Assembly: GCA_965214225.1 (NCBI GenBank)
Contig: OZ243942.1
Coordinates: forward strand, 1,227,774 to 1,291,773
Reading direction: 5' to 3'
DNA from: Polyangiales bacterium
Lineage (GTDB): Bacteria; Myxococcota_A; Polyangia; Polyangiales; CBDCBC01
DNA: 64,000 nucleotides
Shown piece after piece: positions 10,313 to 37,687 of the stretch. The position numbers were made by a program, and so were the translations under genes. The notes beneath the pieces are model-generated. The model did not search any database, was not told the DNA's origin, and saw only the letters and a program-made list of their open reading frames with translations. How positions within the stretch are numbered: the stretch's first letter is position 1; every line of letters begins with the position of its first letter.

Positions 10313-10486
10313 CCTTCGCTCCGTGCCTTCTTTAGCGCAGGATGAGGCAAAAACGAGAGCAGTCGAGCCGCAAACTGCGGATCAACACGACGAGCCTGGG
10401 CGTCCACGGCTCTTCGAGGTTGCTGGGCTGACGGTCGGCCAACTGGAGGTCGACCGGCGTGATCTGCTTGAGCGCAGAAGCATCGC

Positions 10487-10997
10487 CGTGGCTGGCCCGC
10501 CGTGGCTGGCCCGCAGGCAGATGCATCGCCGCTCTCTCAGCGGGACCCACCGTCCTTTGGACGGTCCCCCCAATACGTTCGCTCACGATGCATCTTCCCG
10601 CGGGCCCGTCGTACATGCCCACATGCGGAGAGAGTGGCGTAGTTGACTTAGCCGGGAGGCTCAGGCTCATTTCCACAAGAGGATCCTACTGCTTTGCAAC
10701 AACTTGTAGATGCAACCACTTTGTCGTCCCTGCTATCTGAACCCGTCACCCGACCACGTTCGTGATGGACGGGGGAGTTTGGGTGAATGCCGCGGGATTG
10801 ACTTCCGCGGTAGATAGTTTGGGTTGCACAGCGTCTGGGTGCCAAACCCTCGATAAAAGTCGCATCACGCGGTTGACCCTGCTACCCGAGCACCTTCGTG
10901 ATGGGCGGGGGAGTTTGGGTGAATGCTCGGGATTGACTCCCGTGCAGATAGTTTGGGTGGCACAGCGTCTGGGTGCCAGACCTTTAGTAAACCAGCC
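10487..10997 (-). repeat. Modular structured dispersed repeat family 1, locus 1 (inverted relative to the other loci)
   Basis: Reverse-complement copies of GCATCGTGAGCGAACGTATTGGGGGGACC, GGTCCCGCTGAGWGAGCGG, GAAATGAGCCTGAGCC, GTCAATCCCG, ATTCACCCAAACTCCCCCG and TGGCACCCAGACGCTGTGC also found at 28.5, 33.1 and 35.9-37.0 kb. Confidence 0.95.
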
Positions 10998-11087
10998 CCT
11001 CAGTTAACTAGCCTCACCGGAGCGCGCTTAGGCGCGTGAGGACGGGGTTCAGCGGAGCGTGCGGAAGGCACGACCTTCTTGGCAAGC

Positions 11088-28282: not shown

Positions 28283-28475
28283 ACGACGGACATGCCAACT
28301 GGTTCAAAGAGGCGAGCAGCTTGAATATTCCGGCTACATTGTAGACAGGCAACGTGATCCCACACGGCGAGAGCCGGGCCCAACAGGTGAAAGCTGACCT
28401 TGCTTAGTTGGGCGCTGACCTCGCACTGGAACATCAGGTCCCAGGTGTGCGCCATCTTGAGCGAGGACTGAGAAC

Positions 28476-28600
28476 GGTCCGATGGCAGGTGCTTCGTGAG
28501 CGAACGTATTGGGGGGACCGCTGCGCCCTGGTTTGAATTACGCTGCGCAGTGGTGGGTCCCGCTGAGTGAGCGGCAATGCATCGGCCCGCGGGCCAGCCA
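28476..28600 (+). repeat. Modular structured repeat family 1, locus 2 (core hairpin only)
   Basis: TGAGCGAACGTATTGGGGGGACC ... GGTCCCGCTGAGTGAGCGG. Confidence 0.92.
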
Positions 28601-32745: not shown

Positions 32746-33050
32746 CTGCCTACCGCGTTTCGGTTAACACGCAGCATCTCCACTCGCACCTGTTGCTCGC
32801 AGACACGTGTTGCTATCATGACCGTAGCTGTAGCACTTTCACACCAGAGCATCGCACGCCAGAGAGACAAGAAAACAAGCTCAGTCTAAAGCGCTCCTGT
32901 CCTCATAGAGCGCTCTTGCCCCAACGAAGAGCACGAGCGCACCTACTGGAGGAAAGGGCGGTGAGCTATCTTCACGGTGTATCCTCTCTCCAACACTGTC
33001 TCACACATCCGCTCCCTTGCGCCACACGCTTAGAAATAGCAGCATCCCGC

Positions 33051-33534
33051 CGACAGGCCCCATGCACATACACTGCGCAGACGCATCGTGAGCGAACGTA
33101 TTGGGGGGACCGCTGCGACTTTTACTGAGGGTTTGGCACCCAGACCCTCTACCGCGGAAGTCAATCCCGCGGTATTCACCCAAGCTCCCCCGACCATCAC
33201 GAACGTGTTCGGGTAGCAGGAATGACGAAGTGGTTGGATCTACACGTCGTTGCAAGTCAGTGGGATGCTCACGTGGAAATGAGCCTGAGCCTCCCTGGCG
33301 AAGTCGACTACGCCACTCTCCCCCGCATGTTGCCGGCATCCACGACAGGCCCGAGGGCTGATGCATCGTGAGCGAACGTATTGGGGGGACCGCTTTCCGA
33401 AGGAAAGGGGTGGGTCCCGCTGAGTGAGCCGCGATGCATCGGCCCTCGGGCCTGCCACCACGCTGCACGGCCTCCCATGCTGCGTCGCCACTCGACGCTG
33501 CCACTCGACGCTGCCACTCGACGCTGCCACTCGG
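33051..33534 (+). repeat. Modular structured repeat family 1, locus 3 (about 1.5 units plus a 13-bp tandem tail)
   Basis: Two GCATCGTGAGCGAACGTATTGGGGGGACC cores (33083, 33363), unit start GGAAATGAGCC at 33275, tail GCCACTCGACGCT x3.6. Confidence 0.95.
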
Positions 33535-33651
33535 CTTCAGACGGTTCATTCCTGCCCCCAAAGATAGATGCGACTGCCCTGTCTGCGCGCTAGATTCGGC
33601 GAACGCGCTTATGGTAGTGTCAGCTCAAGCCCTTAGCCCACGAGATTTCCA

Positions 33652-35793
33652 ATGAATCCTCCCGCAATGCTGGCGTCGCTCCTATTATTGCTTGGTTTGT
33701 TCGCCTGGTCGGCAGTGCGGCGCTACCAGCTACTTCGAGCTGTAGGCGGCGACGCCCCCCTGCGCCTGAACTCGGTCAGCGAACTTCTCGCACGTGTGAA
33801 GATGACCGTTATCTACGCTTTCGGACAGCGCAAAATGCCTTACTATAAGGCGGCGGGTATCGCGCACATCCTTATCTTCTTTGGCTTCCTCGTATTGCTG
33901 CTTAGGAGCCTGCTCCTTTGGGGACGTGGGTTCGATCCAACCTTCGATTTTTACGGCGCACTAGCCCATGGGTCAGGGCTGAGCACTGTATACGCGATTC
34001 TCAAAGATTTCTTCGCGATGCTCGTGATCATTGGCTCCTCCATCTTTCTCTACTTCCGGATCGTCAAGCGCGAAAAACGGATGAGCCTTGGTAGCGAGGG
34101 GCTGATCATCCTTTTCATCATCATCACAATGATGCTCGCCGACTTCCTTTACGACGGAGCCGCTAACCTGCTTCGACATCGCGCCCTTGGCCGTTCAGTC
34201 ACGCCCTCGTGGTCAGACCCAATGGGCTCGCTGGTAGCCACTGCGCTCACGCCGCTTCGGCTTGAGGTCAACCAGCTAACCGCTCTTGAGCACCTTGGTT
34301 TTTGGTGGCACTCGCTGTTTGTCCTCATCTTCCTCAACCTGTTGCCGTACTCCAAGCACTTCCACATCATCACCGCGATACCCAACGTTTTCGCCATGCC
34401 TTTGAAGCCGCGCGGGCAACTGCGACCGGTCGACGACTTGGAAGGTCGGGTGGAACGTGAAGAAGCTCTCGGCCTTGGAAAAATAGAGGATCTCTCGTGG
34501 AAGGAAGTCCTTGATACGTACACCTGCACCGAGTGCGGCCGTTGCAGCGATAACTGCCCCGCCTATACGACCGGCAAGATGCTCTCTCCCAAGCATCTGA
34601 TGCTGGCTCTGCGGGAGCACCTATATGACTCAGAAGCACGCCTCACGTTGGCGACCGACGTGCCTCACGCAGACAGCCAAGATCGGGTTCCGGAGGGTCG
34701 GCAAGAGCTCGGCTACGGAGCGCCCGAGGGTGGATATTTTCGCAGCAGTGAAGAGGTAAACCTGGTGCCTGGCATCATGGACCCCAATGTCATTTGGGCG
34801 TGCACCACGTGCCGGGCCTGCGAAGAGCAATGTCCGGTGATGATCACGTTTATCGATAAGATCGTCGGGATGAGACGCGATCAAGTGTTGATGCATGCTG
34901 CCATGCCTGCAGAACTTGAAAAGCCCATGACGGCTATGGAAGTCAATGGCAATCCTTGGAATCTCCCCTCGAGCGAAAGAGCGCAATGGTGCGACGGGCT
35001 GGACGTTGCCTTCTTGCGAGATAAGCCTGATGCTGAGGTCCTCTACTGGGTCGGGTGCGCAGCGAGTTACGACGACCGCGCCAAGCGTATAGCGCGCGCC
35101 ACAGCTTCTTTGCTGAAGCTTGCCGATGTGGGCTTTGCCATTTTGGGATCGGAAGAACGCTGCACCGGCGACCCGGCCCGAAGAGCCGGCAACGAGTACC
35201 TCTTTGAAATGCTAGCGCAAGCTAACATCGAGACCCTCAAGTCGTACAAGGCGGAGACGAAGAAGATCATCACAGCCTGCCCGCACTGTTTCAACACGCT
35301 CGCTCGTGAGTATCCACAGTTCAACGCGCACTTCGAGGTCGTGCACCACACCACATTCCTCCTGGAGTTGGTGCAAGCTGGAAGGATCCCGCTCGAGTCT
35401 ACCAAAGCCCAAAGCTTCGTCTTTCACGACAGTTGCTACCTTGGGCGCTTCAACGACATCTACGACGCGCCGCGCGAGCTGCTTAAGGCCGTCCCCGGCC
35501 TCGATCTGAAGGAGGTTCCGTACTGGTCGAAGAACAAAGGGCTCTGCTGCGGCGCCGGAGGCGCGCAGATGTGGATGGAGGAGCAGAACCAAGATCGCGT
35601 CAATAATAAACGCGCCCTCCAGCTCGTAGACACTGGGGCAGATGCCGTGGCCAGCGCATGCCCCTTTTGCGCAACGATGCTTGAAGATGGCCTAAAAGCA
35701 ACTGGCAAGTCCGTCACGCAGCTGGACGTGGCCGAGATACTGGCCATGTCCGTGGCGACAGGCAGCGCGTCATCTGCCGAGGTGCAGCCATAG
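33652..35793 (+). CDS. Membrane-bound Fe-S oxidoreductase (HdrD/GlpC/FadF-like)
   Basis: N-terminal TM region; CTECGRCSDNCP and CTTCRACEEQCP; CCG domains (CTGD, HDSCYLGR, CCGAGG, ACPFC). Confidence 0.93.
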   Translation: MNPPAMLASLLLLLGLFAWSAVRRYQLLRAVGGDAPLRLNSVSELLARVKMTVIYAFGQRKMPYYKAAGIAHILIFFGFLVLLLRSLLLWGRGFDPTFDFYGALAHGSGLSTVYAILKDFFAMLVIIGSSIFLYFRIVKREKRMSLGSEGLIILFIIITMMLADFLYDGAANLLRHRALGRSVTPSWSDPMGSLVATALTPLRLEVNQLTALEHLGFWWHSLFVLIFLNLLPYSKHFHIITAIPNVFAMPLKPRGQLRPVDDLEGRVEREEALGLGKIEDLSWKEVLDTYTCTECGRCSDNCPAYTTGKMLSPKHLMLALREHLYDSEARLTLATDVPHADSQDRVPEGRQELGYGAPEGGYFRSSEEVNLVPGIMDPNVIWACTTCRACEEQCPVMITFIDKIVGMRRDQVLMHAAMPAELEKPMTAMEVNGNPWNLPSSERAQWCDGLDVAFLRDKPDAEVLYWVGCAASYDDRAKRIARATASLLKLADVGFAILGSEERCTGDPARRAGNEYLFEMLAQANIETLKSYKAETKKIITACPHCFNTLAREYPQFNAHFEVVHHTTFLLELVQAGRIPLESTKAQSFVFHDSCYLGRFNDIYDAPRELLKAVPGLDLKEVPYWSKNKGLCCGAGGAQMWMEEQNQDRVNNKRALQLVDTGADAVASACPFCATMLEDGLKATGKSVTQLDVAEILAMSVATGSASSAEVQP

Positions 35794-35851
35794 CCCAGCA
35801 GCCATAGCCCAGCAGCCATAGCCCAGCAGCCACAGCCCAGCAGCCACAGCC
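35785..35851. repeat. 14-bp tandem repeat x4.8 containing the Fe-S gene stop codon
   Basis: CAGCCATAGCCCAG x3 then CAGCCACAGCCCAG. Confidence 0.92.
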
Positions 35852-35906
35852 TAGGGCAATCGCATCTAGAAGTAGTAGCAATTGCCCGAGGCCCTACCCG
35901 AGAAGC

Positions 35907-37084
35907 GGAAACGAGCCTGAGCCCCTGGGCGAAGTCGACTACGCCACTCCCCCACGCTTGTCGGCTTCCACGACAGGCCCGCTGGCAGATGCATCGTGAG
36001 CGAACGTATTGGGGGGACCACCGCCCAGCCCTGGTTGAATGACGCAGGGCGGTGGTCCCGCTGAGTGAGCGGCGATGCGTCTCTTAACGGGGGTCTGGCA
36101 CCCAGACGCTGTGCCACCCAAACTATCTGCCGCGGAAGTCAATCCCGCTGCATTCACCCAAACTCCCCCGCTCATCACGAACGTGTTCGGGTAGCAGGAG
36201 TGACGAACTGGTTGCATCTATACGTCGTTGCAAAGCAGTGAGGTCTCCGTTCGGAAATGAGCCTGAGCCTCCCGGCGAAGTCAACTACGCCACTCTCCCC
36301 CCGCATATTGCCGCAACACTGACAGGCCCGCTGGCCGATGCATCGTGAGCAAACGTATTGGGGGGACCGCTGCGACTTTTACTGAAGGTCTGGCACCCAG
36401 ACCCTCTGCACGGGAGTCAATCCCGCTGCATTCACCCAAACTCCCCCGCCCATCACAAACGTGTTCGGGTAGCAGGAGTGACGATTTGGTTGCATCTATA
36501 CGTCGTTGCAAAGCAGTGAGGTCTCCGTTCGGAAATGAGTCTGAGCCTCCCGGCGAAGTCGCCTACGCCACTCTCCCCCGCATGTTGCCGCAACACTGAC
36601 AGGCCCGCTGGCCGATGCATCGTGAGCGAACGTATTGGGGGGACCGCTGCGACTTTTACTGAAGGTCTGGCACCCAGACCCTCTGCACGGGAGTCAATCC
36701 CGCTGCATTCACCCAAACTCCCCCGCCCATCACAAACGTGTTCGGGTAGCAGGGTCAACCGCGTGATGCATCCATACATCGGTGTAAATCAGTGGGTTCG
36801 CTCCGGAAATGAGCCTGAGCCTTTTGGCGAAGTCGACTACGCCACTCTCCCCCCGCTTGTCGGCATGTACGACGGGCCCGCTGGCAGATGCATCGTGAGC
36901 GAACGTATTGGGGGGACCGCCCAAAGGGTGGTGGGTCCCGCTGAGTGAGCGGCGATGCGTCTGCCAGCGGGCCGGCCACCACGCTGCACGGTCCCCCACG
37001 CTGCACGGTCCCCCACGCTGCACGGTCCCCCACGCTGCACGGTCGTCTCCCACGCTGCACGGTCTCCCACGCTGCACGGTCTCT
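35907..37084 (+). repeat. Modular structured repeat family 1, locus 4: tandem array of about 3.6 units plus a 17-bp x6 tail
   Basis: Unit starts GGAAAYGAGYCTGAGCC at 35907, 36253, 36531 and 36805; tail CACGCTGCACGGTCCCC-like x6 at 36980-37084. Confidence 0.97.
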
Positions 37085-37207
37085 TAAACTGCGCTTGAAT
37101 GCCCCCGTACCCGTAAAGCACGTAGGCCACGCCAGTAGCAAGCTGCCAGGGCAAAGCTGCCGGTATAAAGTTGACAACTAAGATGACCGAGCCATGCTCC
37201 CCGCACC

Positions 37208-37687
37208 GTGCTTCCTCTACTAGCGCAGCATCTTCTCACGCAGCATCTTCTCACGCAGCATCTTCTCACGCAAGGCACCGCATCTCCACCGTCGATGATC
37301 TGGCCGATCCTGCGAACACTACTGGTGCTCTTGCTGATTTCCGCATCAGCCTGGTGGGCCCTCCGGTGGCTCTCGAGGAGGGGCTTCGGCGTGGTGAAGT
37401 CGGATGGACAGATTCAGGTTGTACAACATCGGCCGCTCACCCGGACGCAGGCTCTCTACATCGTTGAGGTGGAGGGCCACCGACTCCTGCTCGGGGTCGG
37501 TAGAGAGGGTGCGCCGCGTCTCATCTCCAAGCTTGATGCGGTGCGGAGCGCAGAGTCTCTAGAAGGCCACGCCGCTCAGCTTCGCTCTCTCTCGAGCACA
37601 CCCCCAGGCAAAGACAGCAGCGTGACCGATGGCGAACCGCAGAAGGAGCACCGCTCCGCCGGAAGCTTCCCGGCAACCTTCAGCTAA
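37208..37687 (+). CDS. FliO-like export-associated membrane protein
   Basis: Single TM (LVLLLISASAWWALRWL), then IQVVQHRPL...ALYIVEVEG.RLLLGVG; start uncertain. Confidence 0.7.
   Translation: MLPLLAQHLLTQHLLTQHLLTQGTASPPSMIWPILRTLLVLLLISASAWWALRWLSRRGFGVVKSDGQIQVVQHRPLTRTQALYIVEVEGHRLLLGVGREGAPRLISKLDAVRSAESLEGHAAQLRSLSSTPPGKDSSVTDGEPQKEHRSAGSFPATFS

Follow-up and report, generated by a model that had tools for sequence, protein, structure and literature searches.

A tandem array of hairpin-rich units in a Polyangiales genome is probably the interior of a transposable element related to an ISAs1-family insertion sequence

Results

A head-to-tail array behind an Fe-S oxidoreductase gene

We analyzed a 64-kb window (C1:1227774-1291773, C1 being the main contig) from the genome of an uncultured bacterium that its protein matches assign to the Polyangiales (Myxococcota); the genome is 3.67 Mb long with 59% G+C and, by the same matches, has no relative above about 60% protein identity. 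Our subject is a tandem array of hairpin-rich units that follows a gene for a 713-aa Fe-S oxidoreductase (positions without a contig name are those of the window), together with the dispersed repeat family to which it belongs. From the comparisons below we consider it likely that the array is the interior of a non-autonomous element resembling a MITE (miniature inverted-repeat transposable element) and related to an ISAs1-family insertion sequence (IS) of the same genome.

The four head-to-tail unit starts with periods of 346, 278, and 274 bp that a first-pass annotation had read from the letters were recovered by two programs: Tandem Repeats Finder (TRF) reported a period of 277 bp with 2.9 copies and 90% matches at 36133-36920, and a repeat search placed the unit-start module GGAAATGAGCCTGAGCC... 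at 35906, 36252, 36530, and 36804, at those same spacings. All the modules quoted for the array could be read in the sequence as well, and the extent given for it was 35907-37084; the limits of the element lie farther out, with an inverted repeat that starts at 35852 and a tail that reaches about 37115. Open reading frames (ORFs) across the array are short, overlapping, and on both strands, and with periods of 274 to 346 bp, none of them divisible by three, no frame continues from unit to unit; the array is therefore non-coding. The features of the element are as follows.

35852..35868, + strand: left terminal inverted repeat TAGGGCAATCGCATCTA, identical at 16 of 17 positions to the IS end CAGGGCAATCGCATCTA
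35852..35905, + strand: module El, made up of the left repeat and ~35 nt of subterminal sequence, likened to the start of the IS (first ~50 nt) and to the internal module E
35906..36252, + strand: unit 1 (346 bp), with A (35906-35955), a variable small hairpin, the complete H5/H3 hairpin (H5 35991-36019; H3 36054-36078), C (palindrome 36092-36107), D (36131-36198), and E (36199-36252)
36253..36530, + strand: unit 2 (278 bp), with A, H5, C, D, and E, a deletion variant without the apical loop and H3
36531..36804, + strand: unit 3 (274 bp), with A, H5, C, D, and E, the last of another E-spacer subtype, GTCAACCGCGTGAT
36805..36978, + strand: terminal part-unit A-H5-H3, the 3′ anchor, with a complete ~100-nt hairpin at 36875-36975
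36979..37092, + strand: linker minisatellite after the GGGCC(N)GCCAC stem end, 17-bp unit CCACGCTGCACGGTCCC x ~6
37093..37115, + strand: degenerate remnant of the tail module T, recognized by comparison with the T consensus

Unit 3 is 99% identical to unit 2 over a stretch of 179 nt, and the minisatellite occupies the slot that is the usual place of short tandem repeats in this family. A search for the right inverted repeat of this array found no recognizable one left. The left inverted repeat begins directly after a 14-bp repeat (GCAGCCATAGCCCA x 4.9, 35784-35851), which abuts it and spans the stop codon of the Fe-S oxidoreductase gene; on the other side, a 15-bp x 3.3 repeat (37224-37272) lies at the start of the next ORF. 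The number of units is that of the assembly, the public runs consisting of short-read contigs of the source sample only. One such contig joins 36550 to 36824 and skips 273 bp, which could reflect heterogeneity of unit number in the population or a repeat-collapsed contig derived from a paralogous copy.

Module grammar and hairpins

Arrays of the family follow a single grammar, which can be written as [left end] - (C D (E) A H5 (H3))n - A H5 H3 - minisatellite - tail - [right end]. The modules are as follows.

A: GGAAATGAGCC..GGCG-loop-CGCC
H5: GCATCGTGAGCGAACGTATTGGGGGGACC
H3: GGTCCCGCTGAGTGAGCGGCGATGC
C: palindrome GAGGGTCTGG-CAC-CCAGACCCTC
D: a covarying hairpin, then ATTCACCCAAACTCCCCCG, then a hairpin
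E: GCATCTA..GTTGCAAATCAGTGGG

Within arrays all units run head to tail. The 3′ end is A-H5-H3 in 74 of 83 arrays, while the 5′ end varies and may be A, C, El, H5, D, or H3; the number of A-H5 units ranges from 0 to 6, and solo forms (A-H5-H3 and H5-H3) occur. Alignment of the 3′ flanks revealed that the family extends past H3 into short tandem repeats starting GGGCC(N)GCCAC and then into tail T, which ends ...AAGTTAGATGCGATTGCCCTG; arrays that start with A are preceded by CAGGGCAATCGCATCTAaaAGTAGTTGCAATCAGCGGATGCCC..., which is module El. El is confined to the 5′ ends of arrays and T to their 3′ ends.

H5 and H3 are the two arms of one ~100-nt hairpin. Its outer stem of 20-22 bp shows paired changes between copies; an internal loop that is conserved, a GGGACC/GGTCCC stem, and an apical hairpin that varies make up the rest. 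For the terminal 103-nt hairpin, the folding energy was −75.4 kcal/mol on the + strand (z = −8.5 versus shuffles) and −58.6 kcal/mol on the − strand. Where the outer stem was well registered, G:T pairs exceeded A:C pairs on one strand (191 versus 58; these counts are not independent events), and compensatory changes are present in three hairpins. This evidence comes from single-sequence folds and gap-free pairing of the arms, since indels kept RNAalifold from detecting the long outer stem in a MAFFT alignment of 141 hairpins. The variant without H3 and apex, as in units 2 and 3, creates an H5-to-C junction, of which 19 were found genome-wide at about 10 loci.

The family in the window and in the genome

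A blastn search with the units located the family at 127 loci, together 56.5 kb or 1.5% of the genome, all on the main contig; this number of loci and the recurrence of the modules are far beyond chance. The first-pass annotation had also reported modules near 10.5, 28.5, and 33.1 kb of the window, always between genes, and both statements proved correct: the copies lie at about 10.5 kb on the minus strand, at 28.45-28.6 kb, and at 33.04-33.58 kb, and genome-wide none of 91 arrays fell inside a crude gene call. The additional copies in the window are these.

33040..33580, + strand: second copy, H5-C-D-E-A-H5-H3, a 13-bp minisatellite, tail T, and the right repeat TAGATGCGACTGCCCTG (33564-33580)
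28474..28597, + strand: solo H5/H3 hairpin copy
10484..11010, − strand: third array, C-D-D-E-A-H5-H3 plus a 14-bp repeat

The copy at 33040-33580 is 5′-truncated and has no left repeat. Relative to neighboring genes the 91 arrays showed no orientation preference, 50 being co-oriented with the upstream gene and 41 opposed. The H5 25-mer was absent from the GTDB representatives and the JGI metagenomes.

At C1:1393288-1404040 we noted a run of short H5-like matches (CGTATTGGGGGGACC ... GGTCCCGCTGAGCGCCGCGATGC) at a spacing of roughly 0.25-2.5 kb, which looks like a shorter hairpin variant without the GTGAGCGAA block. Elsewhere, at C1:1526262-1530449, co-oriented arrays, among them runs of C-D only, extend for 1.6-1.7 kb behind each of tRNA-Ile(GAT) and tRNA-Ala(TGC). 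This tRNA pair usually sits in rRNA spacers; a location of these arrays in the spacer of an rRNA operon was ruled out, since the 16S gene, at ~1545 kb, is ~14 kb upstream, and the 23S gene is ~0.8 Mb off, at ~2324 kb. The rRNA genes of this genome are thus unlinked, as determined by Rfam and primer-site searches.

Element ends match the inverted repeats of a resident ISAs1-family IS

Where both ends of an element are kept, El and T terminate in 17-bp inverted repeats, CAGGGCAATCGCATCTA...TAGATGCGATTGCCCTG. A genome-wide scan placed GGCAATCGCATCTA and its complement at the outer edges of the arrays with preserved ends and, as exact matches, at the two ends of a 1.3-kb IS, two intact copies of which are present (C1:255676-256971 and C1:2101505-2102798). 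The transposase frame is open in both (411 aa, at C1:255693-256772, and 417 aa); it scored 356 bits on the NCBIfam model NF033564, 'ISAs1 family transposase' (cut-off 70), and also matched Pfam DDE_Tnp_1_assoc and DDE_Tnp_1, and its nearest public homologues, from other phyla, are at most 46% identical. Since the element ends match the inverted repeats of a resident IS, these results indicated that the family is MITE-like and that the genome encodes a candidate mobiliser. The first-pass annotation had pointed to the lack of a mobiliser gene, which is true of the window; the matching IS lies elsewhere in the genome. It had also held that a match of the modules to a described family of IS ends would speak against its proposal, and such a match was found for the element ends only, with the ISAs1-family inverted repeats of the same genome.

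Likeness to the IS covers 21 nt on the right side of the elements and ~35-50 nt on the left (module El/E). Beyond the repeat, the first ~50 nt of the IS resemble E and El only in a short ATCAG(T/C)GG block, ATCAGTGGG, and pairwise tests against the internal E were weak, with 9 and 254 of 2000 shuffles reaching the observed score. The smallest complete element, El-A-H5-H3-T, measures 336 bp (C1:590138-590456), complete elements with arrays measure 0.55-1.16 kb, and most loci of the family are arrays of 0.4-1.9 kb. We also considered whether tail T is a diverged C-D, such that each unit would be a full element from left to right inverted repeat, and rejected this, the alignment being no better than shuffles (165 and 302 of 2000 reached the score).

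The genome holds other intact IS, namely an IS110-family IS in two copies (C1:278674-279902 and 2505879-2507101) and an rve-integrase IS in three (C1:447962-449280, 1345149-1346471, and 3224973-3226422). The ends of neither have anything in common with the repeat family.

The C-D module occurs in other genomes

The C palindrome is 23 nt long, perfect, and GC-rich, often lies directly after stop codons, and adjoins a covarying hairpin; it has the look of a repetitive extragenic palindrome (REP), with no GTAG-type 5′ motif evident. The arrangement of C palindrome, variable covarying hairpin, and TTCACCCAAACTCCCCC was found unchanged in 3 of 201 genomes of the order, and three other Myxococcota genomes carry the palindrome followed by ATTCACCCAAACTCCCCC in unchanged form. 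A search of 185,579 species representatives placed the C-D core in three other species, and it is present in addition on two metagenome contigs. The carriers are as follows, MAG standing for metagenome-assembled genome.

Myxococcota bacterium IP29b_bin.34 (G135): ~87 C-D copies, often in tandem
Polyangiales MAG SRP321284_co1_289: 4 C-D copies
Myxococcales UBA1660: 1 C-D copy

The hairpin between the two conserved C-D blocks differs in sequence from genome to genome and still folds (mean z of about −3.5; 40 and 37 distinct versions). Searches of IP29b_bin.34 and the SRP321284_co1_289 MAG yielded no homologue of the ISAs1 transposase; UBA1660 was not searched. The occurrence of C-D in genomes without the IS suggests that it is an older REP-like repeat, later captured, and we read it as a repeat that would have been taken into the ISAs1-derived element of the host genome.

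The repeats of G135 are mosaics of 100-700 bp with extra modules of their own (e.g., L114 2796-3485 and L115 2535-3385), and the mosaic family there, often located at contig ends, also includes GC-rich hairpins and another palindrome, GGAGGGTTTGCACCAAACCCTCC. No gene linked to these repeats was found in G135. A larger autonomous element around the copies was considered and rejected, as the repeats span only 100-700 bp and short-read assembly accounts for their placement at contig ends.

Units resemble their neighbors within an array

In an alignment of the A-to-H5 segments from 155 units, median identity was 95.8% within arrays versus 88.4% between arrays, and 76 of the 128 units in multi-unit arrays had their nearest neighbor in the same array, as against a chance expectation of 1.2%; several arrays contained identical adjacent units. 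These data suggested amplification in place, by unequal recombination or slippage, or gene conversion, and they support a model in which copy number would grow locally. Amplification in place also fits a minisatellite-rich genome, TRF having reported 56 rows in the window. The same junctions (H3 to C, H5 to C, and D to E) recur at different loci, from which it would follow that the founder that spread already carried at least two units. A constant subtype for the terminal unit was not supported (20 last versus 14 internal).

Extra DNA at sites that lack the family in a relative

The sole genome of the same family with which we compared the host, G001, has no copy of the repeat family and keeps the neighboring genes. 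Its spacer downstream of the Fe-S oxidoreductase orthologue measures 0.9 kb versus 3.55 kb here, and the upstream spacer 0.23 kb versus 0.89 kb here. Both larger spacers hold elements in the host genome; at this divergence, the comparison reveals extra DNA, not a precise empty site.

Discussion

The comparisons above make it probable that the array is the interior of an ISAs1-related, MITE-like element. A founder, already holding at least two units plus the captured older REP-like hairpin modules, would have been moved in trans by the ISAs1 transposase. After insertion, the long direct repeats would allow local shifts in the number of units, through either unequal homologous recombination or slippage during replication, probably aided by the large hairpins and by the general tendency of this genome to tandem duplication, and deletions, many of them ending in or near the H5/H3 hairpin, would yield the 5′-truncated and H3-less forms. 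No cellular function need be assumed, and the hairpins would be kept as part of what is copied or recognized.

Several observations weigh against this explanation. A left end is recognizable in only about 19 of 83 arrays and a right tail in 28 of 83, so that for most loci we infer the transposon identity from membership of the family. No target-site duplication was seen beside the two IS copies or beside five elements with both ends, which may be due to decay or to an IS that makes none. The C-D module spreads in genomes without the ISAs1 transposase, so something else can move or maintain it. Mixed E-spacer subtypes occur in 19 of 41 multi-unit arrays, a mixture for which duplication in place is insufficient and which would need exchange between loci or the addition of units. 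A fixed 3′ end with a variable 5′ end is not predicted by random decay of a cut-and-paste element. Finally, the A-H5-H3 strand has the lagging-strand sequence in 59 of 91 arrays (65%, p = 0.006), with the origin at ~1.906 Mb and the terminus near coordinate 0 of C1 by cumulative GC skew, and this modest replication-strand bias is not predicted by a double-strand DDE mechanism; genes showed no leading-strand preference (1168 of 2287, crude gene calls).

Some of these points would be accommodated if the 277-346-bp unit itself were mobile and were placed at or after a fixed H5/H3 point by a structure-specific recombinase, possibly one acting on single-stranded DNA, with arrays growing from a fixed 3′ anchor and the ISAs1 ends being merely one captured module. 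The fixed A-H5-H3 anchor with its variable 5′ side, the recurrent H5-to-C junction, the mixing of unit subtypes in some arrays, the covarying stems with their excess of G:T over A:C on one strand, and the replication-strand bias would all fit, and H5-C-D-E-A-H5-H3 resembles a unit set inside a solo hairpin. However, tandem duplication with the same end points yields an identical sequence, and the likeness within arrays fits duplication in place better than repeated import; nor was a candidate enzyme found, the one Y1-type ORF being weak, unlinked, and not co-distributed with the repeats, and reverse transcriptase being absent. We regard such targeted insertion as unlikely. There is also a slim chance that the unit, or its C-D and H5/H3 hairpins, serves as the substrate of an undiscovered structure-specific recombination system that adds units at the hairpin anchor; if true, such a system would explain the invariant 3′ end, the mixed arrays, the strand bias, and the unchanged 35-nt core in Polyangiales genomes that share no transposase. 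Copying from the 3′ end with an early stop, as by a retroelement, would likewise leave a fixed 3′ end and 5′-truncated copies, but this is scarcely credible: PF00078 had no match in the genome (of which ~5% is missing) while positive controls matched, no poly-A-like or intron-like features were seen, and no group II intron was matched in Rfam. With no reverse transcriptase in the genome, a retroelement origin of the 5′ truncations is effectively refuted, unless such an enzyme is encoded in the missing part.

The first-pass annotation had proposed a link to REP-associated tyrosine transposases (RAYTs) and to REP doublets forming hairpins (REPINs), and had likened one GTAG-bearing module to a REP. 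As a full account, the palindromic modules would be REPs spread and clustered by a RAYT, a Y1 HUH transposase, which is suggested by the perfect GC-rich palindrome of C, its frequent position right after stop codons, the covarying hairpin next to it, the mosaic clusters in several genomes, and the presence of one RAYT-like ORF in the host. That ORF, a single one of 232 aa (C1:3111989-3112315; L011 1210-1908, minus), reached only 55.9 bits against the NCBIfam REP_Tyr_transpos cut-off of 80 and 23.9 bits on Pfam Y1_Tnp, just over the cut-off. No module lies within 1.5 kb of the Y1 ORFs in the host genome (G000), G135, G020, or G001, and no Y1 gene of the carrier genomes G135 and G020 is flanked by the C palindrome. 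The best relative of the host ORF (42% identity) is in the repeat-free G001, the ORFs of G135 reaching 27-30%, and the units are 7-10 times longer than REPs. The proposed link was not supported, with a weak sole Y1 ORF, module-free flanks, and the nearest relative in a genome without the repeats; the GTAG in question is part of a hairpin loop and does not precede a REP stem on its 5′ side. Nor were the traits of IS200/IS605-type elements found, inverted repeats being present, the Y1 ORF weak, and the strand bias just 65% (TnpB was not searched for), and we judge a RAYT-driven system improbable. The arrays might instead be transcribed and cut to hairpin RNAs exposing the C-rich strand CACCCAAACUCCCCCG, a possible anti-Shine-Dalgarno seed, in which case they would resemble the multi-copy small-RNA clusters of alphaproteobacteria. 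The very stable folds, better on the + than on the − strand (−75 versus −59 kcal/mol), the compensatory changes in three hairpins, and an 18-nt C-rich stretch that is invariant in four species would agree with this. Nevertheless, there is no orientation preference relative to neighboring genes, no promoter- or terminator-like site in the array, and no Rfam match; with Rfam 15, only a tRNA matched in the whole window at the gathering cut-off, and at E ≤ 10 only chance-level matches were obtained for 35500-37500. More than 150 copies, truncations, and inverted-repeat ends are typical of mobile DNA, and an origin as structured small RNAs appears quite improbable.

A separate multi-copy family of ~600-bp fragments (C1:31384, 258779, 1350900, 1360899, and 3058306) adjoins a Y1 pseudogene at 3058971-3059150.

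In the pneumococcal BOX element, the terminal modules carry inverted repeats that resemble the ones of a resident IS (ISSpn2), and the internal module is present in tandem in a variable number that recombination changes; the element is strongly folded, without a clear target duplication (PMC3049150). BOX (boxA-boxBn-boxC) of Streptococcus pneumoniae and S. suis is the closest known analogue of the ISAs1-related family described here. Both are composite and intergenic, with fixed terminal modules around a variable tandem internal module (0-6 units here), IS-like inverted repeats, local change of copy number, strong folding, and no clear target duplication. In contrast to boxB (~45 bp), the internal unit here is 274-346 bp long, six to eight times longer, and consists of five or six hairpin modules; moreover, the parent IS belongs to the ISAs1 family, the arrays are strongly asymmetric, and one internal module is common to other genera without the IS. 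Since BOX comes from another phylum with another G+C content, the likeness is one of architecture and an analogy only.

With IS-derived MITEs such as Nezha/ISNpu3-like elements, RUP/IS630-Spn1, and Correia elements, the family shares a non-coding nature, many intergenic copies, and inverted repeats of a resident transposase-encoding IS. Typical MITEs are AT-rich single units of 100-400 bp with target-site duplications, whereas the elements here are 0.3-1.9 kb long, have 60% G+C, are internally tandem, and displayed no target duplication. Bacterial interspersed mosaic elements (BIMEs) and REP clusters of enterobacteria, like the REPINs of Pseudomonas, are also intergenic mosaics of GC-rich imperfect palindromes and short motifs in variable tandem number. 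REPs are 20-40 nt long, alternate in orientation in BIMEs, and go together with a RAYT gene that has REPs on its flanks; the units here, by contrast, are all head to tail, and no REP-flanked RAYT is present. Mycobacterial interspersed repetitive units and other variable-number tandem repeats (VNTRs), in which this genome is exceptionally rich, resemble the arrays in that they are intergenic, run head to tail, and gain or lose copies through slippage or recombination. A VNTR unit measures 10-100 bp and is specific to its locus, whereas here one unit family with transposon ends is dispersed to 127 loci.

The first-pass annotation had suggested an undescribed non-autonomous element, and a dispersed, hairpin-rich, modular one is what the data support, with no Rfam match and no paper found that describes such repeats in Myxococcota. 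Neither an ISAs1-derived MITE nor a MITE with an interior of macro-repeated composite hairpin units was found in the literature searched. On present evidence, the family is not a new type of system. It accounts for 1.5% of a small Polyangiales genome and for many of its odd intergenic structures, such as long hairpins, minisatellite tails, and 273-bp doublets, and for annotation it provides a simple grammar together with a candidate for the parent IS. The fixed 3′ anchor, the presence of C-D in IS-free genomes, and the strand bias are modest but real leads beyond ordinary cut-and-paste transposition, and the family lends itself well, as a natural case, to the study of transposition acting together with tandem amplification in place.

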